A stretch of 64,000 nucleotides of DNA from a virus, in the IMG/VR virus record IMGVR_UViG_3300033417_000002, positions 1 to 64,000 of that record. One strand, given 5' to 3'. The position numbers and the translations under genes were made by a program. The notes under the pieces are model-generated. The model did not search any database. It saw nothing but the letters and a program-made list of their open reading frames with translations, and was not told the origin of the DNA. Positions 46 to 35,345 of this stretch are shown here, one piece after another; the stretch's first letter is position 1, and each line of letters opens with the position of its first letter.

Positions 46-684
46 TTACCGTACCGGCGTCGCCACCGGCGTTTGCGGATTCCACGTTTCCGGGTCCAGG
101 GTCGGCGCGGCCGTCACGCGGGCCGCGTTTTGTGTAGCCAGTACGACGATGTCTACTGTTGGGGTGGGTGGGCCTTCGCTCGGATTCAGCACCGTCCACG
201 TCGGTGTAGCATCTGCCCCCAACGTCGGCCAGACACCCGTTACCGTAGGCACGGCCGTCTCGTTCCCTGGAACGGCCGTGGGTGACTCATGCACCGGCGT
301 TTCATCCTGAACATACAGTGGGGTGGGGGTAGCGTCCGGATCCGGAGGTTCTGGCGTCTCGTCCAGGCCGTCCTTGTACAGAGCGAACCCGCGCTGTGCG
401 ATACCGACCATGGTATTCGTGAAACGAACCATCTCGTCCTCAGATTCAACCATCAGATCGGTCGTGCTTCTGAGCAGCGCCACCGGATAGGCCGGAATCG
501 CGATCAAAAGTGCCCCCAAAACAGTCGCAACATAAGCCAGGGTCGGTACTCTGTCTGAATTATTCCGGGCCTGCAGTCCGGACCGGGCGCCCAGAAACAA
601 CAGGAACAGACCAACTCCGACGATGGCCGCGGCGATTAGGAAAAATAATCCGTAGCCGCCCGCGTTAATAAGTTTTACGTCCAT
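46..684 (-). CDS. membrane protein with Pro/Thr-rich C-terminal region
   Basis: ORF 46..783 trimmed to ATG at 684 with GGAGG upstream; two hydrophobic helices (GYGLFFLIAAAIVGVGLFLLFL; LAYVATVLGALLIAIPAYPVALL), then TPEPPDPDATPTP-type low complexity. Confidence 0.55.
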   Translation of the reverse strand: MDVKLINAGGYGLFFLIAAAIVGVGLFLLFLGARSGLQARNNSDRVPTLAYVATVLGALLIAIPAYPVALLRSTTDLMVESEDEMVRFTNTMVGIAQRGFALYKDGLDETPEPPDPDATPTPLYVQDETPVHESPTAVPGNETAVPTVTGVWPTLGADATPTWTVLNPSEGPPTPTVDIVVLATQNAARVTAAPTLDPETWNPQTPVATPVR

Positions 685-698
685 AATCGCCTCCAAAC

Positions 699-959
699 TT
701 ATGACGGTCGTTCCGTGACGAACGGCCGTCTTTCCAAACTCCAGAAAACTCTCACGTTCGGCTCCGGGGCAACAAACCTGCAAGGATTGCCGCTATCATC
801 GAACATATAGCCACCACCGCGATCTATTAACTCGTAAACGACGGTCTGTATATCATCGCCGTGATAGACATCCACTGGCTCGCCAGCCTCAAGTGGCTCA
901 CCGTTGTGGTTGTCTTCTCTCCAATCAGGTCGAATATATAATTTGTTAGTAGCGCTCAT
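699..959 (-). CDS. hypothetical protein (86 aa)
   Basis: ORF with AAGGAG RBS just upstream of ATG 959; no recognisable motif. Confidence 0.5.
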   Translation of the reverse strand: MSATNKLYIRPDWREDNHNGEPLEAGEPVDVYHGDDIQTVVYELIDRGGGYMFDDSGNPCRFVAPEPNVRVFWSLERRPFVTERPS

Positions 960-975
960 TGAATCTCCTTCGCCT

Positions 976-1013
976 AAAAACCAAAAAGCCCTCCGAGCAT
1001 TGCACGGAGGGCT
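976..1013 (-). terminator. rho-independent terminator after the RHH gene
   Basis: Minus-strand hairpin AGCCCTCCG-N9-CGGAGGGCT (987-1013) followed by TTTTTGGTTTTT (976-986). Confidence 0.6.
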
Positions 1014-1114
1014 AAATACGCCTATTATTATGTTAGCTGGGCCGCTCCCGTGCGAGTCGGTCCAGTTAGATGGTGGGGTGGTGGTTGCAACACCGCCTCA
1101 CCATTGCCAGTTTG

Positions 1115-1342
1115 TTACAGAATTACTATAAGTCTGTCCTCTTTTCCCGATTCCCTGATCAATATCTCAGCGCCGCGAGTCTGAGCTTCCTTTACGAGTA
1201 ACCCCAGGCTAATGAATCGTCGCACCACGTCAACGACAGGACGACCCTCGGACTTGGCGATCTCTTCCAGGTCGTCAAATGTTTCCTGCGGCATCGTCAT
1301 ATTGAATCGTTTTGAATCGCTCACGCTCAATCCCTCATACAT
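1115..1342 (-). CDS. ribbon-helix-helix (CopG/Arc-like) DNA-binding protein
   Basis: C-terminal part of ORF 1115..1552; RFNMTMPQETFDDLEEIAKSEGRPVVDVVRRFISLGL fits the beta-strand plus two-helix RHH pattern; start uncertain (ATG 1342, GTG 1324 with GAGGGA RBS, or ATG 1300). Confidence 0.6.
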   Translation of the reverse strand: MYEGLSVSDSKRFNMTMPQETFDDLEEIAKSEGRPVVDVVRRFISLGLLVKEAQTRGAEILIRESGKEDRLIVIL

Positions 1343-1355
1343 CGAATATACAACT

Positions 1356-1420
1356 ATTATGCACATTCGCGGCGCATTGTCAATCGTTTGACCAAAATTG
1401 GTCGGCGATTGACAATGCGC
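1356..1420 (-). promoter_or_regulatory. sigma70-like promoter inside a nested 49-bp palindromic operator
   Basis: Minus-strand TTGACA (1378-1383), 16 nt, CATAAT (1356-1361); arms GCGCATTGTCAATCG (1372-1386) and CGATTGACAATGCGC (1406-1420) with inner GACCAA-AA-TTGGTC (1390-1403). Confidence 0.55.
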
Positions 1421-1606
1421 CATGGTGGGCGGTCGGGGCTGCGCCGTCGCTATACGGCCGTCTACTTGTTCGTATAGCAGTGCAGGGTGAAACGCCAGAA
1501 CGCCGGCAAACGGCCGTTCCTGCGGGTATCCAGAAACGAGCGCCTGTGGCACGGCCGTTCTAATAGCGGGTTATTTCCGTCAAATTACCGGGGTGGGGGG
1601 ATAGGC

Positions 1607-1640
1607 AGAAAAAGGCCGCCCGCAAGGGTGGGGGCGGCCT
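1607..1640 (-). terminator. rho-independent terminator downstream of integrase
   Basis: Minus-strand hairpin AGGCCGCCC-N10-GGGCGGCCT (1613-1640) followed by a short U run (1607-1612). Confidence 0.5.
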
Positions 1641-1813
1641 TTCGGAAGAGGGTGGGCGCTAAGCGCAAAATCATCTCGCGTCTCAGGCCAGCACCGTCCA
1701 GCCTGAGCATCACGTAAATTTTACCAGATCGTTGGGTTACGCCAACTTTTGCAAATTGACACTTTTACGCGGGGTAGGCGTCCCTCAGAAGCCTTCCAGA
1801 CTATTTAAAAGCC

Positions 1814-1847
1814 CATACTTAATTAAAGTAGAGTTTTATTAAGTATG
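1814..1847. repeat. 10-bp perfect inverted repeat in an AT-rich patch next to the int stop codon (att or arm-site candidate)
   Basis: CATACTTAAT (1814-1823) and ATTAAGTATG (1838-1847) separated by 14 bp; local AT-rich DNA in a GC-rich genome. Confidence 0.35.
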
Positions 1848-1853
1848 AATTGG

Positions 1854-2789
1854 TCAGGAGTTCAGCCTGGAAAGATGCCTCAGCATGTCGTCTTCATCGG
1901 TGATCGGAGCGTAGAAGGCCCTGGTCGTCCCGATGTCCTTGTGGTTAAGGAACTGCTGGATCACATGAAGCGGCATGTCCTGGCGCAGCATCATGATCGC
2001 CCGGTAATGCCGGATGTCATGCGGCGTCAAACGCTCGTCCAATCCCGTGGCCGCCATTGCGTTCTTGATGGCCAGGTGCAGGGATGTGTCGCTGAGCCGC
2101 TTGCCGCTTGAGTTGCGCGAATGAGACACAAACAAAGCCGAGCCGCGGTCGGTGCGTTCAGCCAGGTAAGCGAGGATGGCCGGGATTGCCCGGCTTTCAG
2201 GATAGCCAAAGCGCAGCGTATGCGGCCGGTTGCCCTTGCCGGTCACCACGGCCGTTTTCGTGTCATGGCTAATGTGCGACCTATCCAGCCGCCGGGCCTC
2301 GCCAATGCGGCAGGCCGTTTCGTAGAGCGTCCAGAAGATGGCAATATTACGTAAAGCTGACAGACGCACGTTGTAATCGCCCCTTCTTTCGTCTGGGATC
2401 GGGTAATTCTCTAAGTATTCGACCAAGCGCGGCATCTCCCGCTTGCGCAGGTCGTCAAGCTGGACGACGTTCATGTGCGAGTAGGATCGCGGCCCGTTGC
2501 GGACCTCGTAGCGGACACGGGTCATATTCACGGCCGTCCCCTCTCCCATCACGTCCATGAATTCCAGGAACCCGGCAATGCCGGCCATGTAGGTGCTGAC
2601 AGTCGGCGGCGTGGTGGTGTCCACCAGGTAGCTGTGGAATCCGATCACCCCCTCGGTGGTAAGCGGCTCTACCCCCTCCCCTTCCGCCCAGGCCAGCCAT
2701 GAGGTAACGGCCGTGCGATAAGTGGATGCGGTTTTTTTGCTTTTTTTTGACTTCGCCTTTAGGAACGCCTCGATATGAGATTTCAACAT
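1854..2789 (-). CDS. int: tyrosine recombinase / phage integrase
   Basis: 311 aa; N-terminal SAM-like core-binding region; C-terminal catalytic signature ACRIGEARRL ... HDIRHYRAIMML ... LNHKDIGTTRAFY (R, HxxR, Y). Confidence 0.9.
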   Translation of the reverse strand: MLKSHIEAFLKAKSKKSKKTASTYRTAVTSWLAWAEGEGVEPLTTEGVIGFHSYLVDTTTPPTVSTYMAGIAGFLEFMDVMGEGTAVNMTRVRYEVRNGPRSYSHMNVVQLDDLRKREMPRLVEYLENYPIPDERRGDYNVRLSALRNIAIFWTLYETACRIGEARRLDRSHISHDTKTAVVTGKGNRPHTLRFGYPESRAIPAILAYLAERTDRGSALFVSHSRNSSGKRLSDTSLHLAIKNAMAATGLDERLTPHDIRHYRAIMMLRQDMPLHVIQQFLNHKDIGTTRAFYAPITDEDDMLRHLSRLNS

Positions 2790-2978
2790 TTGACCATACT
2801 CCTTTCACGGCCGTCTGAGAAACGGCCGTTTTTGACCATAGTTAAGATAATAACAGAATCAACGACCGTTGACCAGAGCGACATAGCGGGGTAAATACAC
2901 CGATTAACGGCCGTACGGCAGCGAAAAGGCCCAGCGGAGGGGAGCCGCCGGGCCTTTTCTGGGAACGGGAGGGGCAAA

Positions 2979-5528
2979 TTAAAAGGCGTTGTAGATGCCG
3001 TACTCCAACCAGCCTTCTTGATTGGAATCGCCGGATGGATACCACGATGCAGTAAACGAGTAGGCGGCCTGAACGCCGGGCACGGCCGCCAACCGATCAT
3101 AGAATTTATGGTAGACGGCCGCTTTGTAGGCAGCCGGGGCCGGGCGGTTGACTGAGAACTCGGTAATGCAGAGCGGCCGTTTCAAGGCGTAGCGTTTCCT
3201 GAACTCCATCACCTCGTCAGCCATCTGGTCAACGGCCGTCGTTTCGTTGTCTACGATGCCGGTGTAAACATGCTCGCAGACTCCAAAGATGTAATCAAAT
3301 GCGCCCACCGACACGGCCGCGTCGATGAAAGCGTATTGTGCCCCGAAGCCTGGGGACATGCCCGGAAACCACAAGCGGATGCCGGGGAACTGCGCTTTGT
3401 AGCGGGCGCAAAGATCTTTGAACGCCGCGCCAAACTCCGCGCCGTTGCTCCAGCGGACGCCCATGCCCTCTAGGTTTGGCTCGTTCAACACCTCGAAGTC
3501 GCGTACACCCATGCTGAACCACTGTGCTACATTGCCCACTGTTTCCTTATATATGTCGCCGTTGAAGTCGGGAGCTACCAGGATGCGAGCCAGGTTGAAA
3601 ACGGGATGCTTGTATTGGGAGAACCATTGGTGATTAGTTCCCCCCGCGTGGAACTTGGGAGCGAGCTTGGTTGTATCAAAGACCTTCTTTGCTTCCGGCC
3701 AGCGCCAATCTGAGGCGGGACCATCCACTCCGGCGACAAATGATACCTGGGGGCCGGTGTAGGTGTCTTGGGGCGGCTGCGCTTCCGGGAACAACTCAGG
3801 CGCTAACGGCCGTAACCACGGCGTCGGATCAACAATTTCGTACGGCCAGCCCGCCTGCCCCGCCGGGTGTTTCATCGTCAGGTGCAGGTGGCTGCCACTG
3901 CTGTTGCCGGTGCTGTCAGCCAGCCCGATCAACTGCCCGCCGGCGACAACCTGACCCACAGTAACACTGGCGCTCTTGAGATGAGCGTAGACGGTCTTGT
4001 AGCCCCCGACATGTTCGATCCGGACGTGGATGCCGTAGTTGCCGGCCGATGGATTCGTTTCCACGACGTAGACCTTCCCCGGCGCGGCGGCAAATACCTT
4101 CGTGCTGTCATAGGCCCGGATGTCGATGCCCTCGTGACCGGGCAGCCCGAATTGGGTGTAGTAGCCTGGATTGGCCCCGAAGTGCTGATTGATGATCTTG
4201 TACTGCGTAGGCCAGTGTGTCAGGCTAAATGCTGCCGGGGCGGCAGGCGTATTCTCAAACTGCACGGCCGTGCCCAGATAATGTTCCGCGTACCAGTCCA
4301 GAAACTCGGCATGTTTCTCCAGGGCGATGCCGTAGAGCACGGCCGTTTTGTTATCCAGCGCCCCAATGCCACCATCGTCATGACTGAAGCCCACACTGCG
4401 CCGGCCGGCGTAGGCCGCCTTACAGATAGCCAACCAATCTTCAAGGCTGGAATCTTGCGGGGCTACGAACATCACGCGGCTGTACTGAACGCGGGGCAGG
4501 CCAAAGCCCGGCTCTGGGTCAGGATCCGGGGGCAGCGGCTCGACCGGCGCCACTTCATAGGTTTTGGTCAAAAGTGCATTCCAGAGCGGCACGACCAGCG
4601 CCTGCGTTTGTTTGTGAACTTCTCCAAAGCCAGCCCCCAAATACCACACGGCCGCGCCCTTGACGTTGGAGTAACGACCGTACAATTTACCCACCTCCAG
4701 TACATCTAAAATCGCCTTCTCGGGAGCCGGTACATTGCGCTCTGCCCATCCCCATTCGGTAATCATGATGGTCGGATAGGGAGAGATGCCAAACTCATCA
4801 CAGGCGGAGATTAGCCGGGTAAAGCGGCCAATTAAATCGTATTTGTAGACGCCGGGGGCGGTTAGGGTACGGCCGTTCCAAATATCGTCAACCGTCCAAC
4901 TGTACTCATGCAGGGCAACGGCCACCTTGTCGGGATTGGCCGCGCACAGGCGCAGGAATTCCACCATCTTCGGCCCGCGCCAATGCTCCGGTTCCGGGTT
5001 GCCGCCTGCCCAGCCAAAGGCCGCCCAGCGGTAGCCGTCGGCCATGGCCATGCGGGCCGTTTCAATGGCGAACGAGGCCAGCCACTCGGTAACGCCGGGC
5101 GAGTCCTTGTCCGGTTCGTTGATGGTCTCTACCCAGACCAGATCGCGGTTGTCCCTGACCTCCACCGGAAACAGCGCCTTGTGATAGGCCCAATGTTGGG
5201 CGGCCGCTTCGTAGGGGGATTTGTCATAGCTTGGAACATTGGGGTCCACAATCCCATCCGGCAGGCGCACGCTCCGCCGGTAAACGATGCTGTGAATATT
5301 GGCCTTGCCCGCGTCCACTCGCGCCCGCGCTATCTGAATGGCGTCAAATAGCGAACCATCGGCCGTTTTGGCCATGAAGGGAATGTCGGCCGCGTCCAGG
5401 GCCGTATACATTTCTTTGGGCACGCCAAAGCCGCCGCTGCCGGTGTGGAATCCGTTAATCCTCAAGCGAACGGGGACGGCTGTTCCGCCGAATAGTTGTT
5501 TGAATGAATCCAGTAAGTTTTTGAACAT
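2979..5528 (-). CDS. multidomain endolysin (GH-A-like, M23 peptidase, GH-A-like)
   Basis: 849 aa; central LytM/M23 signature (GHEGIDI ... GNSSGSHLHLTM) flanked by two TIM-barrel-like modules with NEP acid/base and TE(W/F) nucleophile motifs (ETINEPD + ITEWGW; VLNEPN + ITEFSV); lies in the lysis cassette. Confidence 0.8.
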   Translation of the reverse strand: MFKNLLDSFKQLFGGTAVPVRLRINGFHTGSGGFGVPKEMYTALDAADIPFMAKTADGSLFDAIQIARARVDAGKANIHSIVYRRSVRLPDGIVDPNVPSYDKSPYEAAAQHWAYHKALFPVEVRDNRDLVWVETINEPDKDSPGVTEWLASFAIETARMAMADGYRWAAFGWAGGNPEPEHWRGPKMVEFLRLCAANPDKVAVALHEYSWTVDDIWNGRTLTAPGVYKYDLIGRFTRLISACDEFGISPYPTIMITEWGWAERNVPAPEKAILDVLEVGKLYGRYSNVKGAAVWYLGAGFGEVHKQTQALVVPLWNALLTKTYEVAPVEPLPPDPDPEPGFGLPRVQYSRVMFVAPQDSSLEDWLAICKAAYAGRRSVGFSHDDGGIGALDNKTAVLYGIALEKHAEFLDWYAEHYLGTAVQFENTPAAPAAFSLTHWPTQYKIINQHFGANPGYYTQFGLPGHEGIDIRAYDSTKVFAAAPGKVYVVETNPSAGNYGIHVRIEHVGGYKTVYAHLKSASVTVGQVVAGGQLIGLADSTGNSSGSHLHLTMKHPAGQAGWPYEIVDPTPWLRPLAPELFPEAQPPQDTYTGPQVSFVAGVDGPASDWRWPEAKKVFDTTKLAPKFHAGGTNHQWFSQYKHPVFNLARILVAPDFNGDIYKETVGNVAQWFSMGVRDFEVLNEPNLEGMGVRWSNGAEFGAAFKDLCARYKAQFPGIRLWFPGMSPGFGAQYAFIDAAVSVGAFDYIFGVCEHVYTGIVDNETTAVDQMADEVMEFRKRYALKRPLCITEFSVNRPAPAAYKAAVYHKFYDRLAAVPGVQAAYSFTASWYPSGDSNQEGWLEYGIYNAF

Positions 5529-5533
5529 TGTTC

Positions 5534-5941
5534 CTACCTACCTTCAGGACACCAGCGCCGCCAATTGATGCTGGGTCTGAGGTTTTCCAGCAGACTGACC
5601 AACTCGCACGTACGGCCGTGCCGGTCAATAAATAAGCAGAACTGGAGCGACCTGTCGCTGTGGCCGTCGCCGCCGATGTCTTCAAGATTTGTGTTCATCA
5701 GGAATGCGAGCTGCCGCAGTTCCGCTTCGTTGAAACGGCCGGCGATGGCCATGTGTAAATGTTTGTTGGGAGACAACGGTCCGCTGTCCCCCTTTTCGAT
5801 TCGCAGCCGCTCCTCCAGGTAATCCAGCCGTTCGATGATTTCCTGAAATACCCGCTCGTCACGTTCATTTAACGTACCGCTGCCATACTGCTGCTCGATC
5901 CGCTCAATTCGACCAACGACTTCCTGGAGCTTTCGCGCCAA
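5534..5941 (-). CDS. coiled-coil protein with effector-associated-domain-like C-terminus
   Basis: TTG start in ORF track; heptad-rich N-terminus; C-terminal FNEAELRQLAFLMNTNLEDIGGDG...IDRHGRTCELVSLLENLRP resembles death-like EAD adaptor modules. Confidence 0.55.
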   Translation of the reverse strand: MARKLQEVVGRIERIEQQYGSGTLNERDERVFQEIIERLDYLEERLRIEKGDSGPLSPNKHLHMAIAGRFNEAELRQLAFLMNTNLEDIGGDGHSDRSLQFCLFIDRHGRTCELVSLLENLRPSINWRRWCPEGR

Positions 5942-6081
5942 GCGGGTTTGTCTTCCCCCAGGGTCTTGACCTCCCTCCCCAGGCCGGCCGCTAATGTGTT
6001 GATTAAGTCCTCAAACCGCTGGTTTGTTTTCTGCTGCTCAGCGAAAATCAGTTCTAAAAGGGTTGTGTCGTTGTCGCTCAT
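5869..6081 (-). CDS. hypothetical coiled-coil protein (possible upstream half of a frameshifted gene)
   Basis: ATG 6081 (MSDNDTTLLELIF...); overlaps 5534..5941 by 73 nt; the downstream frame is reached by a -1 shift at a G5 run (5955-5959). Confidence 0.45.
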   Translation of the reverse strand: MSDNDTTLLELIFAEQQKTNQRFEDLINTLAAGLGREVKTLGEDKPAWRESSRKSLVELSGSSSSMAAVR

Positions 6082-6091
6082 GTTCCTATAC

Positions 6092-7216
6092 TCATGTTTG
6101 TCTTGGTAAATAAATGGCAAACGTCGAACCACGGCCCAGTTCGGATCGTTCCAATACGGCCCGGCCGCCGTGAGCCTCAGCCACGTGGCGGACCATGTAA
6201 AGGCCGTAGCCGGCTCCTTCGTTCCTGCGGGTCATCATATTGTCGAAAATCTGGACGCCGGGATGCCAGATGCGCTGGTAATCGTCGGGGTGGATGCCGA
6301 TGCCGTCGTCGGTGACGGAAATCACAAGGTTGCCGTTAACCGGCCGGCATTCGACGTGGACATGACCGCCCCCGTCGCAGGCCTTGAGCGCATTGCGGAC
6401 CAGTTCCATCACGGCCGTTTGCAGCTTGAACAAATCAGCCTCGATGATCGTAGGTGCGCATCCCGACGTAAAGGTCACGTCGCCGGGCTGCTTGCGCGTG
6501 GCCACGTGTAAATCCGGGTTGTCCAGGACGCTGGCAACAATCTGGCTCAAATCAACCGGCTCCAGGCTCGGCCGCCGCAGCAGTGTATCGGAGAAGCGCT
6601 TCATATTGCGGAAACGGCCGGCGCTGCGAATGATGCCCTCGGCGTGCTGCTGCGCTTTTTCCAGAGTGTCGGCTTCCATAAGCATGGCCGCGTAGCCGGT
6701 GAGGAGTGTCAGCGGTGTGTTGATTTCGTGCAGGGCCACCGAAACAAAGTCTTCTTTCTCCCGGACGATGGCCTCTTTCTCGGCGAGCAGCGCTTCCCGC
6801 TCCCGCATATGCTCCTCGCGTTCCTGCTGGCGATCCTCCTCCATGCTCAGCATACGAATTCTCGCCGTGTCTCGCTCCCGCTCCAGCCTCCCGACGTAGA
6901 AGATACTAATTGAGGTCAGCAGGGCGCCCATACCAGACAAGAGGAAAAACGGCCGTATTTCGGCCGATGCGATCCCGTATCCGGGGAACCAGGGCACCGT
7001 CAGGCGGGCATATTGCACCGAGAGGGTCATGCACGTGACGCCAACCATGAGAAGGGACAGGGATAACCACGCCGGGCGCTTGTAGCGCCTGTGGCTGTCA
7101 AGAGCAGCGACGACGAAGATAACTCCAGCCAATGCGTAAACCAGGAAGGTCGCATATAGGATCGCGTTCGGCGGGGAGATCTGGAAGAATCCGAAAGAAA
7201 GCGAAATATTCGTCAT
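6092..7216 (-). CDS. membrane sensor histidine kinase
   Basis: 374 aa; about 4 N-terminal TM helices, coiled coil, H-box ALHEINTPLTLLTGYAAML, N-box ELVRNALKA, G1 DDGIGI, G2 GAGYGLYMV. Confidence 0.85.
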   Translation of the reverse strand: MTNISLSFGFFQISPPNAILYATFLVYALAGVIFVVAALDSHRRYKRPAWLSLSLLMVGVTCMTLSVQYARLTVPWFPGYGIASAEIRPFFLLSGMGALLTSISIFYVGRLERERDTARIRMLSMEEDRQQEREEHMREREALLAEKEAIVREKEDFVSVALHEINTPLTLLTGYAAMLMEADTLEKAQQHAEGIIRSAGRFRNMKRFSDTLLRRPSLEPVDLSQIVASVLDNPDLHVATRKQPGDVTFTSGCAPTIIEADLFKLQTAVMELVRNALKACDGGGHVHVECRPVNGNLVISVTDDGIGIHPDDYQRIWHPGVQIFDNMMTRRNEGAGYGLYMVRHVAEAHGGRAVLERSELGRGSTFAIYLPRQT

Positions 7217-7281
7217 CGTATTTTGGATTGATGCAGGGCGTCTATCCCTGCATCAATCCAGGTGTGAGGGCTGAACGGCCG

Positions 7282-7635
7282 TTACCGGCGGAACCAGCCG
7301 GCCGCCTTCTGGAACTGGTATACGCCGCTGGATGATGTAGCCGTAATCCAGATCATCACAATCACCTTCACGGCCGTTGCCCAGTTGACGAATAGCTCAG
7401 GCGTAATCTGGCCTGACACCGCGGCCGCCATCACGCCCATTAGGCCGGTGACAACCCAGGACGCAATGCGCGCGCCGTTCTCGTCCAGTTTCAGCAGCTG
7501 CTTCAATAGGCCAACGACACCAACAGTCCCGCCGGCGGCCGCGGCAATGATCAGCAGAGTCTCTACGATGGTAACAAGGTCTCCCCACCAAGGGGCGTTG
7601 ACTTGTAACCACAAAGCTAAAAGGTAAACGTTCAT
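7282..7635 (-). CDS. putative holin (3 TM)
   Basis: 117 aa with three hydrophobic helices and a basic C-terminus (GWFRR); first gene of the lysis cassette after the tail fibres. Confidence 0.5.
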   Translation of the reverse strand: MNVYLLALWLQVNAPWWGDLVTIVETLLIIAAAAGGTVGVVGLLKQLLKLDENGARIASWVVTGLMGVMAAAVSGQITPELFVNWATAVKVIVMIWITATSSSGVYQFQKAAGWFRR

Positions 7636-7691
7636 TGTTTTATTTCCTCCAAAAACTATTATTTGGGTTCCTTAACCCTTGTTACAAAAAA

Positions 7692-8126
7692 TTAACTTTC
7701 AATCAAAAACCACAACATACGAATCAGCTGCCGTGGAATCGGCGTCGTGGCCGAACCTATATCGTCAAGCGTTAACTTCTCTGACAGGTCGGCCGTCAAT
7801 TCGTGCGCCAGGGCCGGCTCGATATCCGCCGAAGCAGCCGTGAACTGTGCGGCCGTTTTCAGGGCGAACATGCCGTGTTCCTCAGCGCCATGCCGCACGA
7901 TCGTCTTGTTCCACTGCTTTAGCAGCGGGCCACGATCAACGTCCAGCCGGCGCAGGATTCTGTCAACCTTGATGGACACATCAGCGGGAAATTCCGTGGC
8001 GTCGAGTTTCTGAAGCATCCCCTCGGCCTTGAACAGGTCTCCGAATGTGGCTGCTTTCACCTGGCCATCATCAGCCGGCGCTACGGCCGTTACTGCTGTT
8101 CCGTTGTTGTTTTTTGTTTTGGTCAT
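7692..8126 (-). CDS. hypothetical protein (144 aa)
   Basis: ORF directly downstream of the tail fibre gene; no recognisable motif. Confidence 0.5.
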   Translation of the reverse strand: MTKTKNNNGTAVTAVAPADDGQVKAATFGDLFKAEGMLQKLDATEFPADVSIKVDRILRRLDVDRGPLLKQWNKTIVRHGAEEHGMFALKTAAQFTAASADIEPALAHELTADLSEKLTLDDIGSATTPIPRQLIRMLWFLIES

Positions 8127-8138
8127 AATAATTACACC

Positions 8139-10175
8139 CTAAATGTGATAGCCGACTACACGGACAACCGCATTATTCATGGTTGCACCGCTTACTACCA
8201 GATAAAAATTCCCACTGGCATCTGTTGGTACAGTCACCGTCATTTCGGTACTGAAATTGGCAATCTGCGCCCTGATCAGGGCGATGTTAGTTCCGCCTGA
8301 GCTGCTGCGCAGTGCGCAGTTATTTGCCGCTGACGCGGCCGCCCACTGCCCGGATACTAAAACGTTGACCGCTTTTGCGGCCGCTGGATAACCGAATATG
8401 GCCGGTGTTAAAGTGTACGTTCCGGTTGTCTTGGTGTCGTCCCCGTTCCAGGAAGTGCTGGTCAGGGGAGTGGTTAACTGCCGGAAGCCGTATACATCGT
8501 ATGCCGTCGATGATTTGACACTTTGCAAATTGCCACTAAACTGCACTTTTGCCGTACTAGAAACGACCACAAGTTGATTTGTGTTGATAACAACATCGTT
8601 ACCCGCGCCGCTTGTTGTAATGATCAGGTCAGCGCCGGGTGTGAGATAAAGAGAATCGTCAGCCTTGATCTGACCCGTTCCAACAAAATTCATCTGGATC
8701 CCGTCAGTGCCCTCCTCCTTGAAATCCACATGACGGATGGTAGATGTTGTTTTGACGGTAACACGCACGGAGTAAGCCCCCGCCGTGATAGTTTGCAACG
8801 TGAGGCTTCCACTGGCTGCGGCCGACACTATCGGTGTTGTAATCTTCTGTACTGTTACAAACCCGCTGGCATCCGTCGCCAGAATATGAGCATTGGCCGC
8901 ACCCGCTGCGCTGCTTGTCAGTGTTACCAACTGGCCTGCCAGACTCAAACCTAGTCCACTCACCGTTACCAATGCGTGATGAGCGTTGGCAATAGCTGCA
9001 TGGCTGGCAATCGCGGCCGTTGTCTCCGAATCTCTTGCGATAGACGCGGGTATGTCAGCATCCTCCAGCGCCCGGAACAGTGCCGTCGTCGCTCCGGTCG
9101 CAATTAACACCTGCCGGGCCGTTAGTCCGCTTACGGTGTGATCCGGTCCCAGGGCGGCCGTAGTGGCCAGAACGTGGCTTTGATTGTGGTGAGCATTAGG
9201 CAGCGCCGCGTGATCGGAAATTGCAGTTGTCACCTCGCTGTCTCGTGCAATTGCGGCCGGAATATCCGCATCCACTAGCAAGCGGAATGTCGGGATCGCT
9301 AACCCGCCTGAAGTTGGCCCGGCAAACACCAGGTTAGCCGCCTGCGTGTCCAGTGTGATTTCCTGCCCGGTCAGGCCGAGCAATTGGTTGCCCAGGTCGT
9401 TGCTGAGCGTAACGGCGCTGTGCAACTCGCTATCACGAGCAATAGACGCAGGTATGTCAGCATCCTCAATAGCTCTAAACAAGGCGGTTGTGGCCCCGGT
9501 CGCCACTAAAAATTGGCGTGCGGTTAATCCACTGACGGTATGGTCCGGACCAAGGGCGATGGTTGTCGCCAGTACGTGGCTCTGGGCGTGATGCACGTCG
9601 GCCAGCGCTGCATGGGCCGCAATGGCCGCCGTCACCTCGGCATCAGTGGCCATCGTTGAAGGCATATCCGCCTCCACCAATGACCGGAATGAAGGCACGG
9701 CCGCGCCGCCCGTCGTTGGCCCGGCAAAGACGATGTTCGCCGCCTGCGTGTCCAACCCCAATTCCTGAGTAGACAGGCTGAGCAGGTTGCTGTCCAAGCT
9801 CGCCGCCAACGTCACCGCGTCGTGCAGTTCGCTGTCTCGGGCAATCGCCGCCGGAATGTCCGCATCTTCCAGCGCCCGGAAAAGCGCCGCCGTTGCTCCG
9901 GTCGCAATCAGCACCTGCCGGGCAGTCAGGCCGCTGACCGTATGATCCGGCCCTAAAGCCGACGTGCTGGCCAACACGTGGCTCGTCACCGGCGGCGCAG
10001 TCCCGGTCGTCCAGGTTGTCCCCCCGTCGCTGTTGACGTAGAAAACCTTACCCACCGTATCCCAGCAGAACGTCCCCTCCGCCGCTTCCAGCAGCCCGTT
10101 GGGGTCACCGGCGTAGGTTAGCAGCGTTGGTGTGCGCTGTGTCTCCTGGTTGCGCAGCCGTCCATCCAGCGTCAC
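8139..10175 (-). CDS. tail fibre protein with tandem repeats
   Basis: 678 aa, Ala/Thr/Gly-rich; 2.5 copies of a 134-aa unit (SHVLATT.ALGPDHTVSGLTARQ.L.ATGAT.ALFRA.EDADIPA.IARDSE...); C-terminal beta-rich domain; position at the end of the tail module. Confidence 0.75.
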   Translation of the reverse strand: MTLDGRLRNQETQRTPTLLTYAGDPNGLLEAAEGTFCWDTVGKVFYVNSDGGTTWTTGTAPPVTSHVLASTSALGPDHTVSGLTARQVLIATGATAALFRALEDADIPAAIARDSELHDAVTLAASLDSNLLSLSTQELGLDTQAANIVFAGPTTGGAAVPSFRSLVEADMPSTMATDAEVTAAIAAHAALADVHHAQSHVLATTIALGPDHTVSGLTARQFLVATGATTALFRAIEDADIPASIARDSELHSAVTLSNDLGNQLLGLTGQEITLDTQAANLVFAGPTSGGLAIPTFRLLVDADIPAAIARDSEVTTAISDHAALPNAHHNQSHVLATTAALGPDHTVSGLTARQVLIATGATTALFRALEDADIPASIARDSETTAAIASHAAIANAHHALVTVSGLGLSLAGQLVTLTSSAAGAANAHILATDASGFVTVQKITTPIVSAAASGSLTLQTITAGAYSVRVTVKTTSTIRHVDFKEEGTDGIQMNFVGTGQIKADDSLYLTPGADLIITTSGAGNDVVINTNQLVVVSSTAKVQFSGNLQSVKSSTAYDVYGFRQLTTPLTSTSWNGDDTKTTGTYTLTPAIFGYPAAAKAVNVLVSGQWAAASAANNCALRSSSGGTNIALIRAQIANFSTEMTVTVPTDASGNFYLVVSGATMNNAVVRVVGYHI
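8960..9983 (-). repeat. about 400-bp tandem coding repeats (2.5 copies) inside the tail fibre gene
   Basis: Protein residues about 65-198, 199-332 and 333-405 align nearly residue for residue; the sub-motif DADIPAxIARDSE recurs five times. Confidence 0.8.
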
Positions 10176-11503
10176 AGGGCCACCTCGCTTTCTAGCTCCG
10201 GCGTAATCGTTTCCCGGCCGTCACTCGACCAGCCCACCGTTACCCCCACCACCTTCAGATTGTGTTCCCGGCCCAGGTACACGGCCGTTACCAGATCCCC
10301 TAAATCCCAATCACGGCCGTAGCGCGTCGCCGGTGTCTGGCGGGCAGTAAATGAGAGTGTGCGCTTGGGCCGCTGCTTGGCAATCGTCGCCGCGCCCAGG
10401 GCGTCCATTTCGTCGTCGCTGTAGCTGTTGCGGCTGCTCCTGGTCACCGCCCGCCGCGCCCAGGGGGAAAGCGCCAGCAGCGCAGCGTCGGCCGCCGTGC
10501 GCACCTTTTGCAGCGCCCCCACACCCTGTCCAAGGACATAGGCGGCATTGACCTCATCCAGGTGCGAGTAACCGGCGCTGACGCTTTCCATGTTGCCCAG
10601 TTCCGGCGAGAAAACAACCGGCGCGTTGCCGGCCGTGTTGCCTCGCGTCTTGTCATCACCCCAGCGGGTATTGCGCCAGGTGAAGGTGAACGCCGCCGGG
10701 CCGCTGCCTAGAATCATGTAATCGCCCGGCCCATACTCGGCCAGTTCGTCCAGCACGTCGGACAGCAGCTTGTCGGCCCGGTCGCCCTGCCAGGTCTTGC
10801 CCAGCGCCGGGCTGGCCGCCACTGTCAGGCCCGGCATGACCCGGCTGTTACCCAGCCCGTCAACGCCGGCCGATGGCCCAATGTTTTCCTCCACGTAAGC
10901 GCGGGCCACAGCCGCCACGTCGCCGCTCTTGGCCGCCCCGGCGCTGCCCTCGGCGGCCCGAACAACCTCGGCGTAGAGCATGATGTTATATCCCTGGCCG
11001 TAGCTGATAAATACGTAACGGCCGCTTTGCTCCTGGTTGAATTCCTCTTTGCGGTGGAAGACCTCGAAGTCCTTGTAATAGCTCAATCCAATCGCCGGAT
11101 CGCTTCTATAGAATTCCCACTGGTAATCCAGGTGGCTGCCGGCGCCGTCGGCCGGATCCAGCACCAGGTAATCACGCACCCGGTCATCGTTGCCGTAGAC
11201 GCGCACCGTCGCCGCCCCCGGCGTCCGCAGTCGCCGCCGGTAGCTAAACGCTTGCAGCCCACCGCCCGACAGCCCCCGGCCGCCCCCGGCGAATTGAGCG
11301 ACAACCGCGCCGTCATGGTCCAGGAGCTTCAGGAAATATTCGGCGGCGGTGGTCGTGAAGAACACCAGCGCCGGGGTAATGCCTGTGCCGGGCACGGCCG
11401 GGGTGGTAGCGGGCGCGGACGACGGGAATAGGCCCGTCGTCACAAACGGGGTGATGCTGCCCGGCCCGGCGCCAATGCCCAGGGTGATAATACTTTCAGC
11501 CAT
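10172..11503 (-). CDS. tail/baseplate structural protein (Sipho Gp37-like by pattern)
   Basis: 443 aa; position between fibre-like genes; general resemblance to siphovirus Gp37-type tail proteins (weak, from memory). Confidence 0.45.
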   Translation of the reverse strand: MAESIITLGIGAGPGSITPFVTTGLFPSSAPATTPAVPGTGITPALVFFTTTAAEYFLKLLDHDGAVVAQFAGGGRGLSGGGLQAFSYRRRLRTPGAATVRVYGNDDRVRDYLVLDPADGAGSHLDYQWEFYRSDPAIGLSYYKDFEVFHRKEEFNQEQSGRYVFISYGQGYNIMLYAEVVRAAEGSAGAAKSGDVAAVARAYVEENIGPSAGVDGLGNSRVMPGLTVAASPALGKTWQGDRADKLLSDVLDELAEYGPGDYMILGSGPAAFTFTWRNTRWGDDKTRGNTAGNAPVVFSPELGNMESVSAGYSHLDEVNAAYVLGQGVGALQKVRTAADAALLALSPWARRAVTRSSRNSYSDDEMDALGAATIAKQRPKRTLSFTARQTPATRYGRDWDLGDLVTAVYLGREHNLKVVGVTVGWSSDGRETITPELESEVAL

Positions 11504-16733: not shown

Positions 16734-19550
16734 TCACCTCGACGCCATCTCTAGGTACTGGAATTCAAGCGCCAGGCCGCCCGGCTGCGTCGTGCTCTGG
16801 GTGGTCAAGTTAAACTGCCGGTTATCCTGGTTGACCTGGCTCATGTTGTTTCCCACCTGCCCCGGAGCCAGCGGCGAAACGCTGGCCATTAGCCCGGCCA
16901 TCGGCGGCATATCCAGGCCTACCTTCAATTTAGGCAGTTCCACACTGCTCAGGTGGCGCATCGCGTCGCTAATGTAGTTGAGCGAGTGATAAAGGGGGGG
17001 CGGACTATGTCCCTCCATCCAATCCGGCAGCTTGACGTTTCCGAGCGCTTCGGTCATTTTTAAGATGAATTCCCTGACACTGTCGAAGGCGGCCCGGATC
17101 TTGTCCAGGCTGTATTTCAGTCGGGCCAGTTTGTTATCGGCAAAGTCCTGAATAATCGGTCCGACCTTGTCTTTGATAAGTTCCCACACCTCCCGGATCA
17201 CCGGCAGTATTTTCTCGCTGAAGAACTTCCAGTTCTCTTCCAGCGCCGGTTTGAGCACGTTCTTCCAGATGCCGGCCAGTGCCCGCAGCGCCACGCTAAA
17301 TACGGTATCTATGAACTCATCCACCGCTTTCAGCAGCGGGAACAGGCTCTCGCTGATAAACGACCACACGATTTCCAGCGCTGGCTGCAAGGTGTTGTTC
17401 CAGATGTCGCTGAGGAGTTGGGTATCTTCGGCCAGGTCAACGGCCAGCCACTCGCCCACGGCCGCAAAAATGGGCAGGATGTTGTCATTGATAAACGCCC
17501 ACACCGCGAACAGCGCCGGCTGCAGCGTGCCCAGCCAGAAGCCAACATAGGTCTCAATAGCCAGTGGGATGTGCTCAATGAGCCAGGCCACCAGCGTGCC
17601 CAAAATGGGAATCAGCGTTTCCGACAGGAACGTGCCCGCCCAGGCCAGCGCCGGCGCTAAATAGTTATTCCAAACCTCAGACAGGTATTGAATCGCCGGT
17701 GGAATCACTTCTTGCAGCCACGACCACAGCCCGGCCAGCGCCGGCTGCAGCTTCTCCTCCCACTGCGTGGCCATCGATCCCATAATCGGCATCAGATAAT
17801 TGTTCCAGTAATCGGTCGCCACCTGAATCGCCAGCGGCAGCAGCAGTTGGAACCACTCGCTCAGTTGGACCAGGACGGGCAGCACGTTCTCCTGGATGAA
17901 GGCGCTGGCATTCTCAAATGCCGGCAGCAGCGTGCCTTCCCAAAAGCCGACGGCCGTTTCAATCCCCACCGGCATGTCATTAATGAAAAAGTTGACGACA
18001 CGCTCAAAAATCGGCGGCAGGGTCTCGCTCAAAAACTCGCCAATGCGGGCGAAGACGGCCTCGATTTGTGGCCCGTGTTCTTCGATGAAACCGGCGAAGC
18101 CCTGCACCAACTCGGTCAGCACCGGCAGGAACTTCTCGCCAATGCCAATCTTCAGCGACTCCATCGCCCCTTCCATGGCCTCCACCTGGCCGTGATAGGT
18201 GGCCGTGCGCGCCGCAGCCTGTTCCTGGATGGTGGCCGCGTTGCCGATGGCCTCGCTCATTTCGTCCCAGCCCGCGATACCTTCGCCCAATAGGGCGTTC
18301 ATGGCATTTTGGCCGTAGCTGCCGGCGATGGTCTGGATGTACTCCAGACGCTGCTGTTCGGTGAGCTGGCGAACGGCCGTCGTCGCCTCACCGGTAATGC
18401 CGCTCAACCGTTCAATCTCAGCATTGGCCGCGGCTTGCTGGTCAACATATTTACTGAGCTGCTGGTCGGTCAAGACCTTCATTCCGGTGTTGTGTTTATA
18501 GATGGCGTCGGTCGCCTGCTTGTAGGCGCGTTCGGCCAGCTTCATCTGCTCGTTTTGCTCGGCGGTACGGCCGCCAACCATGACCGTAACCTCGCTGGCC
18601 CCCATCAACGCCCCTTCCAGGTCGCCGATGATTTGCGGCAGGTCGCGCATCGTACCGTCGGCATTGAAGAGGCTGACGTCTAATTCGTCCAGCGCGCCGC
18701 GTACCTGATCGGTCGGCCGCATAAGGTTGGTCATCATGGATTTCAGCGCCGTGCCGGCTTCCGCTCCCCTGATCCCCCGCGTGCTCAAAATCGCCAGGGC
18801 TGCGTTGGTCTCCTCAATACTGAACCCAAATGCCGAGGCCGTCGGCCCCACGTTGGTCAGCGCCGCTGCCAACTCGCTTACGTCAGCCACCGAAGCATCG
18901 GCAGCCTGCACGAAATTATTAAGCGCGTCGTTGACAAACTTGGCCTGGTCCTCGGTGGTTTCCATCCCGCCGCCAAACGTAGACAAGGCAACCGCCGCCA
19001 AATCCGACGCCTGCACCATGTCCAACTCGCTGGCCGCAGCTAAATCAATAGAGGCTCGCAGCGCCCCGCCCAATTCGGCCGTGCCGGCCATGTAGCCCTG
19101 CAGGTCGCCAAACACGACGGCCGAATCGAGGCCGGCCTTGAACAACCCGGTCATGGCGTCGGCCGCGCCCGTTGCCGACACGCCAATCAGCGAGGTATCA
19201 CCGCCAACTCTCAGGGCAGCGTCGTGAAGCTCGTCGAAGGAAAGGCCGCTGTCGCGGGCGGCGATGCCCAAAATAGAAACCTGGTCCTGGAAGTCGGCGG
19301 CCAGGTTGATGCTGTCGACCGTAGCGCCGACGATAGCCTCGCCCATCCGGTAGAGACCATCAATGACGATCTCGATACCTTTGGCGGCCAGGTTACCGAG
19401 GGCAACCGTTGCCGCACTGACGGCCTTCGTTTGGCCGCCCCAGCGCTGCTCCACGCCGCCGATCCGCTGGTCCATGTCGCCCATTCGCGACATAAACTGG
19501 CGGAATCCTTCGACGGTAACTTCGAGTCCCAGTTTCTCTTGTTCGGCCAC
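16734..19550 (-). CDS. tail tape measure protein
   Basis: 938 aa, helical and Ala/Leu-rich; N-terminal core-like region (AMTGLFKAGL, MRDLPQIIGDL); W/F-rich periodic C-terminal half; position after the chaperones. Confidence 0.85.
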   Translation of the reverse strand: MAEQEKLGLEVTVEGFRQFMSRMGDMDQRIGGVEQRWGGQTKAVSAATVALGNLAAKGIEIVIDGLYRMGEAIVGATVDSINLAADFQDQVSILGIAARDSGLSFDELHDAALRVGGDTSLIGVSATGAADAMTGLFKAGLDSAVVFGDLQGYMAGTAELGGALRASIDLAAASELDMVQASDLAAVALSTFGGGMETTEDQAKFVNDALNNFVQAADASVADVSELAAALTNVGPTASAFGFSIEETNAALAILSTRGIRGAEAGTALKSMMTNLMRPTDQVRGALDELDVSLFNADGTMRDLPQIIGDLEGALMGASEVTVMVGGRTAEQNEQMKLAERAYKQATDAIYKHNTGMKVLTDQQLSKYVDQQAAANAEIERLSGITGEATTAVRQLTEQQRLEYIQTIAGSYGQNAMNALLGEGIAGWDEMSEAIGNAATIQEQAAARTATYHGQVEAMEGAMESLKIGIGEKFLPVLTELVQGFAGFIEEHGPQIEAVFARIGEFLSETLPPIFERVVNFFINDMPVGIETAVGFWEGTLLPAFENASAFIQENVLPVLVQLSEWFQLLLPLAIQVATDYWNNYLMPIMGSMATQWEEKLQPALAGLWSWLQEVIPPAIQYLSEVWNNYLAPALAWAGTFLSETLIPILGTLVAWLIEHIPLAIETYVGFWLGTLQPALFAVWAFINDNILPIFAAVGEWLAVDLAEDTQLLSDIWNNTLQPALEIVWSFISESLFPLLKAVDEFIDTVFSVALRALAGIWKNVLKPALEENWKFFSEKILPVIREVWELIKDKVGPIIQDFADNKLARLKYSLDKIRAAFDSVREFILKMTEALGNVKLPDWMEGHSPPPLYHSLNYISDAMRHLSSVELPKLKVGLDMPPMAGLMASVSPLAPGQVGNNMSQVNQDNRQFNLTTQSTTQPGGLALEFQYLEMASR

Positions 19551-35074: not shown

Positions 35075-35345
35075 CCTCGTCTCCAGCCACCAACGTTTTC
35101 CCCGCCGCCCGGCTTATGTATGTGCGGGCCTCTGGCAAGCGATTGGTGCTTCTGGCCAGAGCGTCATTCATCGCACCAAGCGCCAGCTTCGCCGGCACTG
35201 TCGTTATGGTGGATTCAAGCATATCTTGCCACGTAATCCCTACCATCGGTTGCAAATTCAAAAGCTCAGGATACCGCATTGTCAGCGCATCCATCTCCCG
35301 TCCCAGCTTATCAGCCATCACGTAAAATTCACCAGTAAACATCAT
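35064..35345 (-). CDS. hypothetical protein (93 aa), paralog of the N-terminus of 34487..35074
   Basis: Shared N-terminal motif; ATGA overlap with terL. Confidence 0.5.
   Translation of the reverse strand: MMFTGEFYVMADKLGREMDALTMRYPELLNLQPMVGITWQDMLESTITTVPAKLALGAMNDALARSTNRLPEARTYISRAAGKTLVAGDEDDI

Follow-up and report, generated by a model that had tools for sequence, protein, structure and literature searches.

A membrane histidine kinase and its EAD7-domain neighbour in the lysis region of a phage genome

The stretch analysed here (the window) comprises 64,000 nucleotides of viral DNA, positions 1 to 64,000 of the IMG/VR virus record IMGVR_UViG_3300033417_000002, and it carries a gene for a sensor histidine kinase that lies among the lysis genes of a phage. 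A histidine kinase is almost always understood from the response regulator that is its cognate partner. Judged by its domains, alignments and predicted fold, this open reading frame (ORF) is shown to be an intact, selectively maintained class-I (HisKA/HATPase_c) membrane histidine kinase and, from the searches described below, the founder of a very rare family of which all readable loci are phage-like. The kinase gene, its parts and the gene of the small adaptor protein that accompanies it are the following:

6092..7216, minus strand: sensor histidine kinase (P0001), 374 aa, ATG start
6887..7165, minus strand: family-specific sensor module with three transmembrane (TM) helices, aa 18-110 (hydropathy, profile search, AlphaFold)
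6578..6886, minus strand: charged coiled-coil signalling helix and hairpin of the dimerization and histidine phosphotransfer (DHp)/HisKA domain, aa 151-213 (Pfam, alignment, AlphaFold)
6098..6562, minus strand: HATPase_c catalytic domain, aa 219-373, with N box N275, G1 and G2
5534..5941, minus strand: coiled-coil and EAD7 adaptor protein, 135 aa, with an uncertain TTG start

An intact kinase core

The preliminary description of the locus had taken the ORF for a complete kinase, and in fact the reading frame 6092-7216 and all the motifs that it quoted (the H-box, ELVRNALKA, DDGIGI and GAGYGLYMV) are present in the translation. Completeness is borne out by Pfam hidden Markov models (HMMs), which detect HisKA at 35.7 bits (cut-off 26.9; aa 154-204) and HATPase_c at 82 bits (cut-off 26.4; aa 263-373). 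All catalytic residues are intact; a loss of such residues was looked for by alignment and none was found. H163/E164, N275, D303-x-G305-x-G307 and G334-x-G336-x-G338 are invariant across the seven-member close kinase family recovered from 5.8 billion proteins, and the catalytic positions, H163 included, are invariant columns of a 52-kinase alignment. The core can be aligned end to end with the solved DivL, SrrB, HK853, CpxA, WalK and KinB. H163 (codon CAC at 6728-6730, motif HEINT) occupies the phospho-acceptor position, and H163-E-I-N-T-P-L aligns with H-E-L-R-T-P of SrrB and HK853. The E-x-x-T phosphatase motif of HisKA is also conserved, as are all phosphotransfer residues. Of the features of a class I kinase, the H-box of HisKA and the boxes of HATPase_c are thus present, and an adjacent or same-genome receiver was not found in the region searched.

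The AlphaFold model has a mean predicted local distance difference test score (pLDDT) of 88 and contains canonical DHp and catalytic domains. TM3 is prolonged as a single helix (aa 88-180) through the coiled coil into DHp helix 1, the hairpin leads into helix 2 (aa 185-213), and the alpha/beta catalytic domain follows (219-371); the coiled coil noticed in the preliminary description is seen as a charged helix continuous with TM3. In one member of the family this coiled coil is longer by exactly seven residues, an insertion that would preserve the heptad register. Foldseek matches of the model include HK853, DivL, WalK, KinB and CusS.

Between the window kinase and its copy in the related locus L003 (82% identity), synonymous divergence (dS) is 0.85 and the ratio of nonsynonymous to synonymous divergence (dN/dS) is 0.14 (0.20 in the sensor and 0.11 in the core), indicating that the whole kinase is under purifying selection. 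No obvious Shine-Dalgarno sequence precedes the kinase gene, unlike the neighbouring genes.

A three-helix sensor in a very rare family

The number of N-terminal TM helices, first put at about four, is three when topology is examined by hydropathy and AlphaFold (aa 18-45, 49-73 and 88-110). Two elements of the sensor module are conserved in the family, namely an N-terminal 'ISPP' and a TM2-TM3 loop 'YAQLTVPxFPGxP...RPxFLL', which in the window kinase reads 'YARLTVPWFPGYGI...RPFFLL'; the outer loop has about 14-22 residues. Both elements are predicted by the positive-inside rule to face outward, on the extracytoplasmic side, and conserved motifs in such a position argue for a specific ligand or partner and not for a passive anchor.

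In an exhaustive profile search, the three-TM module alone matched 8 of 1.84 billion representatives: six full-length kinases of the family with the same architecture and two fragments of 140-163 aa without a detectable kinase domain. In total, about 11 of 1.8 billion representatives belong to the kinase family. None was detected in 185,000 species genomes, where only generic kinases at 23-36% identity were found; IMG/VR scanned with the kinase and EAD7 alignments gave no match, and a scan of Joint Genome Institute (JGI) metagenomes with the kinase gave only two distant kinases. Among deposited phages there is no close relative by blastn, kinase matches by tblastn are confined to the core at no more than 32% identity, the EAD7 protein is unmatched and terminase matches reach at most 27% identity. 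Statements on the context of kinase loci cover the members with readable contigs (P0006 has no contig on record), and in all of these the context is phage-like.

Two kinase matches among deposited phages were considered as comparable phage kinases and rejected: that in MW462191.1 (L031) lies in a chromosomal context with aminopeptidase N, GlnE and HigB, and that in PQ789820.1 (L032) lies in a chromosomal RND efflux operon with a regulator-sized gene. Many other kinase matches of this collection are unannotated fragments labelled as Listeria, Enterococcus or Salmonella phage, which suggests that host DNA is present within the deposited phage collection.

The neighbouring adaptor protein

The 135-aa protein encoded downstream of the kinase belongs to the EAD7 family (PF19960), which it matches at 35.6 bits (cut-off 32) over the full profile (1-62 of 62); a custom EAD7 HMM matches it at 5e-25, and it holds the single EAD7 copy of the window. 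The protein is composed of a helical hairpin (aa 2-49) and a C-terminal EAD7 domain (aa 58-123, nt 5573-5770), the latter modelled as a compact five-helix bundle with a pLDDT of 91-97. Foldseek found no significant match of the EAD7 model in the PDB and so did not confirm a death-like fold.

The order of kinase, EAD7 protein within 0-166 nt and then lysin is found in five of five independent loci, whose kinases are 29-82% identical. Besides the window, these are:

L003/L004: kinase 82% identical to that of the window; kinase, 58-aa ORF, EAD7
L002: kinase 48% identical; kinase, 71-aa ORF, EAD7
L005: kinase 47% identical; kinase, EAD7, Peptidase_C39_2-like lysin
L030: kinase 29% identical; kinase, TM-anchored coiled-coil-EAD7 protein 6 nt downstream, homologue of the N-terminal domain of the window lysin

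PF19960 is carried by the partner proteins of L002, L003, L005 and L030. The small TM proteins encoded upstream of the kinases are mutually unrelated, and in L005 and L030 no TM protein is encoded directly upstream; consequently, the synteny conserved in related phages is kinase-EAD7-lysin and not, as had been expected, holin-kinase-lysin. The term orphan, applied to the kinase in the preliminary description, holds in that no receiver was found in cis, but not in the sense of a kinase without a partner gene, given the coiled-coil-EAD7 neighbour in all five loci.

Two groups of siphophages lack the kinase (L023-L025 and L028/L029), and in them the EAD7 gene overlaps the lysin start. Compared with those of L005, which has the kinase, their EAD7 proteins show 62-64% identity and their lysins 44-55%; the EAD7 protein of L023-L025 is listed in 34 index blocks of the contig collection. 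Since these relatives keep the EAD7-lysin pair, the kinase would be an optional input to a wider EAD7-lysin module. Directly upstream of the EAD7 gene of L023, and overlapping it, lie two ORFs of 31-32 aa with one TM helix each (9821-10014), which have counterparts in the kinase-EAD7 gap of L005 (1657-1824); these tiny proteins may be additional membrane components of the lysis cassette.

The two partners evolve differently. In the comparison of the window with L003, nucleotide identity is 91% for the N-terminus of the fibre gene, 80% for the kinase and 73% for the lysin, and there is no detectable nucleotide similarity in the holin region or in the region of the small ORF and EAD7. At the protein level, the EAD7 proteins are 32% identical and the kinases 82%. 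Divergence of EAD7 beside conservation of the kinase fits arms-race diversification or matching to different hosts.

The constancy of this neighbour also bears on the idea that a 'phoR-like' kinase simply hijacks host physiology by cross-talk to an ordinary regulator (Pho, WalR or envelope-stress), EAD7 being unrelated to it. The best curated matches of the kinase are indeed PhoR, PnpS, AtoS and WalK, kinases annotated as phoR occur in soil phage contigs (PMC10987575), and phage phiCDHM1 has an AgrC without AgrA. But these matches concern the generic core: no curated kinase equivalog of NCBIfam (PhoR, PnpS, WalK, CpxA, ZraS and others) matches the whole protein at its cut-off, the best of them being PhoR at 99.4 bits (cut-off 334.2) and WalK at 82.5 (cut-off 725), with only aa 145-373 covered, and the sensor module is unique. 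Moreover, adjacency to EAD7 in all five loci, with kinases down to 29% identity, is unlikely without functional coupling. We consider this explanation improbable.

Search for a receiver

Receivers were searched for with an HMM built from 23 receiver (REC) domains, which recovered its positive controls, REC-EAD7 proteins that it had not seen, at 1e-14 to 1e-20. The ORFs of all six frames were scanned in the window, in a further 10 kb of contig, and in L002-L005 and L023-L030; nothing scored better than E=1.5, so that the absence of a receiver from the 64 kb, as first described, stands.

EAD7 domains of the phage type are joined to receivers elsewhere. The phage EAD7 profile matches only 20 proteins in 5.8 billion, and two of them (P0140 and P0135) are REC-EAD7 fusions; others carry AAA_16 (the STAND-type NTPase domain), PF18145, which we take to be the SAVED domain, or TPR. 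In the cellular locus L026, the REC-EAD7 gene directly follows those of a 1837-aa GAF-HATPase_c kinase and of another receiver. As read from its genes, L026 is a case of cellular His-Asp signalling that feeds an EAD7 adaptor. The region 225-11066 of this locus encodes a SARP/BTAD-NB-ARC-TPR STAND protein, a FosB-like glyoxalase, the kinase (8xGAF-HATPase_c) and three consecutive receivers, the middle one being fused to EAD7.

An iterated palindrome shared with a cellular locus

The commonest 8-mer of the window is ACGGCCGT, with 131 occurrences against 1.7 expected, two of them inside the kinase ORF (6411 and 6949), in agreement with the genome-wide motif of the preliminary description. It is also the top 8-mer in the related loci that were checked (L002, L023 and L028), has a density of 0.6-2.6 per kb across the related phage loci and is missing from 14 unrelated genomes; a literature search on the motif gave primers and constructs only. 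ACGGCCGT behaves as a highly iterated palindrome, before which A and after which T is weakly preferred (AACGGCCGTT). In the coding region of TM3 a terminator-like hairpin, CGGCCGAAATACGGCCG followed by TTTTT (6950-6966, minus strand), is formed by two copies of the CGGCCG core and probably arises only from the iteration of the palindrome; the window as a whole shows no enrichment of terminator-like sites (13 against 10.8 expected).

The same 8-mer is the commonest in the cellular locus L026/L027 (11 against 0.07 expected, at 44% GC). All named relatives of the L026 STAND protein are from Anaerolineae, Anaerolineales or Chloroflexota. Together, the shared signature and these relatives indicate that the phages most likely infect filamentous Chloroflexota, a lineage that encodes REC-EAD7. 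To our knowledge, phages of filamentous Chloroflexota are essentially unstudied.

This finding removes one argument. The presence of ACGGCCGT in the kinase gene had been taken to speak against a fresh host capture; as the Chloroflexota-like locus L026 has the same signature, host DNA would carry it too, and the motif is no evidence against capture. Long residence of the kinase in phages is better supported by the readable loci, all of them phage-like, the absence from 185,000 species genomes, the dS of 0.85 and the dN/dS of 0.14. The ORF could otherwise be a non-functional passenger, that is a recent host capture, a decaying pseudokinase or an assembly chimera, and besides a motif content that is no bar to host origin the top PDB match, the pseudokinase-like DivL, would suit this explanation. 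Against it stand the retention of H163 and of all ATP-binding residues, the low dN/dS, the same arrangement in five phage lineages and in two independent assemblies of the genome, and the lack of any cellular homologue closer than 36%; we regard the passenger explanation as largely refuted, with very little probability left to it.

Lysis genes and genome organization

The phage nature of the region, as described earlier, is confirmed by terminase, portal, protease, head and tape-measure genes; an M23 lysin ends the late operon. These genes of the window, nearly all on the minus strand, are:

35342-37099: terminase large subunit
32167-33807: portal
27672-29249: protease
25524-26612: major head protein
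16734-19550: tape-measure protein
10172-11503: Sipho_Gp37-like protein

Around the kinase lie the following features:

8139-10175, minus strand: fibre-like protein, 678 aa
7658..7687, minus strand: promoter-like site TTGTAA-18-AATAAT in the AT-rich spacer 5' of the holin-like gene (consensus match only)
7282..7635, minus strand: holin-like membrane protein, 117 aa, three predicted TM helices, basic C-terminus KAAGWFRR
7228..7256, minus strand: perfect 11-bp inverted repeat TTGATGCAGGG-N7-CCCTGCATCAA, ending 11 nt before the kinase ATG, without a T-run
5869..6081, minus strand: small coiled-coil ORF, 70 aa (MSDNDTT...), with its ATG at 6081, 11 nt after the kinase stop
2979..5528, minus strand: putative endolysin, 849 aa, separated by 5 nt from the EAD7 gene
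1854..2789, minus strand: tyrosine integrase (Phage_integrase), the next gene downstream of the lysin

The gene order is therefore fibre, 144-aa protein, holin-like protein, kinase, 70-aa ORF, EAD7 protein, lysin and integrase, with the kinase at the distal end of the late block and the M23 lysin as its last gene. From kinase to lysin the genes are separated by 11 nt, an overlap and 5 nt; overlaps of 4 nt occur in L003 and L005. The position between holin and endolysin proposed earlier is correct as to the flanks, but the 70-aa ORF and the EAD7 gene stand between the kinase and the lysin.

The holin-like gene has a strong ribosome-binding site (GGAGGA). The putative holin of the preliminary description is supported by the three TM helices and the basic C-terminus of its product but has no match in Pfam, PHROG or NCBIfam, so that the label rests on topology; its positional counterpart in L003 has a weak match to Phage_holin_6_1. 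The spacer 5' of the kinase gene in L003 also contains a stable 11-bp hairpin without a T-run, of a different sequence (GCGTCGCCGGG ... CCCGGCGACGC, about 1146-1196), and a hairpin at this place, 3' of the holin-like gene and 5' of the kinase, may have a role in regulation or processing. The 70-aa ORF was not called by the gene caller of the contig, and its 3' end overlaps the EAD7 ORF by 73 nt. The 58-aa ORF that occupies this place in L003 is a homologue (29% over 49 aa, E=1e-6); the one in L002 is of comparable length and has no detectable similarity to it. No conserved His or Asp that could serve as a phospho-acceptor was found in the small ORF.

The M23 peptidase domain of the lysin (81.6 bits, aa 464-554, nt 3867-4139) has the motifs HxxxD (HEGID) and HxH (HLH). 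A peptidoglycan hydrolase thus closes the late operon of the window, and the lysins of other loci are Peptidase_C39_2-like or share the N-terminal domain of the window lysin, which recurs in the gene after the EAD7 gene in L003 and L030. On either side of the M23 domain lies an unassigned domain of about 300-450 aa; both contain an 'NEP' motif (WVETINEPD and FEVLNEPN) that resembles those of clan GH-A glycosidases, without HMM support.

With these genes at hand, a purely phage-internal regulator can be considered, in which kinase and EAD7 protein would act on the phage's own holin or lysin, with antiholin- or chaperone-like timing, following a logic like that of T4 RI or Ms6 Gp1; no host receiver would take part, and the kinase would have a non-canonical substrate or be an ATP-dependent switch. 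The location of the kinase between the holin-like gene and the lysin is as expected from this, translational coupling of the EAD7 gene and the lysin is common to all loci, the EAD7 protein of L030 is anchored in the membrane, and no receiver was found in the window, the 10 kb more of contig or the related loci. The partners it would need are, however, inconstant: holin-like proteins are unrelated or absent directly upstream and yet the sensor motifs of the kinase are conserved, and lysin families differ (M23 and GH-like domains against Peptidase_C39_2) while EAD7 is constant. The retention of all phosphotransfer residues and of the E-x-x-T phosphatase motif is also hard to explain without a receiver as substrate. 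On this evidence a phage-internal regulator seems to us distinctly unlikely.

The integrase indicates that the phage, a siphophage of about 100 kb, is temperate. The exact kinase protein is found in two independent assemblies of 100,387 and 100,373 bp. The window is identical to the European Nucleotide Archive (ENA) contig where they overlap and runs about 32 kb past the first base of that record, which indicates that one circular or permuted genome was linearised at different places. A circular genome of about 100.2 kb is probable: by subtracting terminal overlaps of 141 bases (from the k141 contig name) and 127 bases (assumed as typical of JGI assemblies) we infer 100,246 bp for both assemblies.

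Other observations concern the remainder of the genome. The fibre-like protein contains three copies of a repeat with a core of about 50 aa (…LGPDHTVSGLTARQ.L.ATGAT.ALFRA.EDADIPA.IARDSE…) at a spacing of about 120-135 aa; over roughly the first 56 aa it shares 93% identity with the L003 homologue, and the remainder is swapped, as in a host-range cassette. Two DNA methyltransferases are encoded on the minus strand (46405-48108 and 54861-56183; phrog_116 at 8e-59 and phrog_56 at 1e-24). Beyond the integrase and past window position 1 (L008, 10655-20639) lie genes for FtsK/SpoIIIE, an SLT transglycosylase, a P22-type antirepressor, ParA/CbiA and RadC, a plasmid- or ICE-like (integrative and conjugative element) set that is unusual for a siphophage.

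Relation to known systems

The closest phage precedent is phiCDHM1 of Clostridioides difficile, which encodes an AgrC membrane kinase without a regulator beside its endolysin; the gene is transcribed during infection and signalling through a host regulator has been proposed (PMC3901668). The likeness consists in a phage membrane kinase that lacks a response regulator and adjoins an endolysin gene. The phiCDHM1 kinase, however, is of the AgrC type, is accompanied by agrB and agrD, has a known signal and, at about 60% identity to host AgrC, is a recent capture, whereas the window kinase has a HisKA core, three TM helices, an EAD7 partner and no cellular homologue above 36%. The 6-7 TM sensor of the AgrC type is not found in it, and no AgrB or AgrD family was matched among its neighbours.

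In structure, the only full-length analogue of the kinase found by Foldseek is BceS (8g3a_D). LiaS is an intramembrane-sensing kinase like BceS. Kinases of this type share with that of the window a minimal membrane anchor, short loops and no extracytoplasmic sensor domain, and BceS requires a partner membrane protein in order to sense; the resemblance of the window kinase to BceS is one of overall architecture only. With its two TM helices and HAMP-like linker, BceS lies beside an ABC transporter and has BceR as cognate regulator; the window kinase differs by three TM helices, the lack of a linker domain and conserved outward motifs. Neither a transporter nor a LiaF-like gene was found near the kinase, which sets it apart from the BceS/LiaS type.

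LytSR with LrgAB/CidAB, and T4 RI, exert signal-dependent control of holin-like proteins and murein hydrolase or of lysis timing. LytS belongs to the His_kinase (PF06580) type, has a 5TM-Lyt sensor and is paired with a regulator of its own, LytR, and T4 RI is not a kinase; there is no homology of these to the window kinase. The phoR-annotated HisKA/HATPase_c kinases of soil phage contigs have conserved ATP-binding residues and dN/dS below 1, and are discussed as metabolic genes, neither a lysis-cassette position nor an EAD7 partner being reported (PMC10987575).

EADs are small non-enzymatic adaptors that occur twice per system, on the NTPase core and on the effector, and for which homotypic coupling has been proposed; EAD7 is placed among the effector-recruiting ones, and it is mainly multicellular prokaryotes, Chloroflexi among them, that have such systems (PMC7159879, PMC8195603). 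In these systems receivers occur without cognate kinases and no histidine kinases are found among the effectors; prophages and holins are not mentioned in the two papers (Kaur et al. 2020, 2021; PMC7159879, PMC8195603). The phage locus resembles EAD-coupled systems in the adaptor domain itself, in the adjoining partner genes and in the fast diversification of the EAD, and differs by a single EAD7 on a small coiled-coil protein, the lack of an NTPase core and the lysis context; with one EAD7 per locus, it is not an EAD-coupled NTPase system. The REC-EAD7 proteins P0140 and P0135, encoded next to a kinase in Anaerolineae-like genomes (locus L026), share with it the link of His-Asp phosphotransfer to EAD7 and the ACGGCCGT signature; L026 is cellular, its receiver is fused to EAD7 and its 1837-aa GAF-rich kinase is unrelated, and the phage version has no receiver.

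The known role of EADs leads to another alternative, namely that kinase and EAD7 protein form a defence or lysogenic-conversion module expressed from the prophage. The kinase would sense the membrane perturbation caused by a superinfecting phage, and EAD7 would recruit a death effector, of the host or of the phage and possibly the adjacent lysin, with abortive infection or superinfection exclusion as the result. In fact, EAD7 is not known outside conflict and immunity systems, the integrase two genes downstream marks the phage as temperate, the region is flanked by a promoter-like site and a hairpin, the EAD7 gene shows the hypervariability frequent among defence genes, and the phiCDHM1 authors proposed defence as one role of its kinase (PMC3901668). 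The organization of the locus speaks otherwise. All the genes have the orientation of the lysin, with which they are closely packed or overlap in a late operon, and phages without the kinase keep EAD7 overlapping the lysin start, as would suit lysis. PADLOC recognized no known defence system, a second EAD7 copy is lacking, and no STAND, MoxR or vWA family, hence no NTPase core, was seen among the scanned neighbours. A defence module is in our view a possible but unlikely explanation.

A proposed mechanism

The preliminary description had suggested control of lysis timing or hijacking of a host response regulator, and each is compatible with the data. The evidence points to a more specific version, the coupling of the kinase to EAD7-tagged receivers of the host: a signature, ACGGCCGT, that is common to the phage and to a locus where kinase, REC and REC-EAD7 follow one another suggests that host receivers may be reached through EAD7. 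We therefore propose, with our confidence evenly balanced, that a late kinase acts on a host receiver by EAD7 docking and so affects cell death. The kinase would be made late, together with the lysis genes, and its membrane module would respond to the condition of the membrane or envelope, or to a membrane protein as partner, in the manner of intramembrane-sensing kinases. It would autophosphorylate on H163 and pass the phosphate to, or remove it from, a receiver protein of the host, no receiver having been found in the searched part of the phage genome. The adjacent EAD7 adaptor would dock by homotypic EAD7-EAD7 contact on REC-EAD7, STAND-EAD7 or SAVED-EAD7 proteins of the host. The outcome would be a decision on when or whether the cell dies, either by timing lysis or by holding off host suicide immunity until lysis.

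Several observations weigh against this mechanism. No conserved His or Asp that could act as a phospho-acceptor is found in the EAD7 proteins. The EAD7-lysin pair stands without a kinase in related phages, and EAD7 may consequently serve a purely phage-internal function in lysis. About 26 kb of the genome of about 100 kb lie outside the receiver search. The phage kinase cannot be derived from that of L026, with which it shares only the generic fold (20% identity, E=0.06), and the difference in GC content (44% in L026 and 57% in the phage) makes L026 at best a relative of the host. Finally, promoter and terminator calls are not reliable for the host of this phage.

A bolder form of the proposal, which we hold only tentatively and think rather doubtful, is that the viral kinase and the EAD7 adaptor are a two-piece plug into the EAD7 immunity and cell-death network of the host. 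Kinase or phosphatase activity would set the phosphorylation of the host receiver, and the suicide programme would be silenced or triggered in step with lysis. Viral FLIP (vFLIP) and the poxvirus POPs are small proteins of eukaryotic viruses that consist essentially of one homotypic adaptor domain of the death or immunity network of the host. They belong to another domain superfamily and another kingdom and are not paired with kinases, and a decoy role of the phage EAD7 protein is a hypothesis by analogy.

Conclusions

A phage kinase without a regulator is not new as such, since phiCDHM1 AgrC and the 'phoR' genes of soil phages are known; the sensor module, the obligatory EAD7 partner and the position in the lysis cassette of a Chloroflexota-type phage are new. 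For annotation, it follows that phage kinases named 'phoR' by best match may be quite different. The family, so far found on phage-like contigs only, appears to have swapped its regulator partner for an adaptor of conflict systems, amid genes that kill the cell.

If the two-piece plug is true, it would be the first phage counterpart of the death-fold decoys of eukaryotic viruses and the first phage kinase to be targeted to a receiver by a separate adaptor domain. If the coupling of kinase and EAD7 is real, it would provide a concrete and testable case of a phage that reads a membrane signal to decide the death of its host, and the first functional handle on EAD7, a domain without a structural match in the PDB. 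It would also connect two-component signalling with networks of death-fold-like adaptors in multicellular bacteria, the filamentous Chloroflexota among them.

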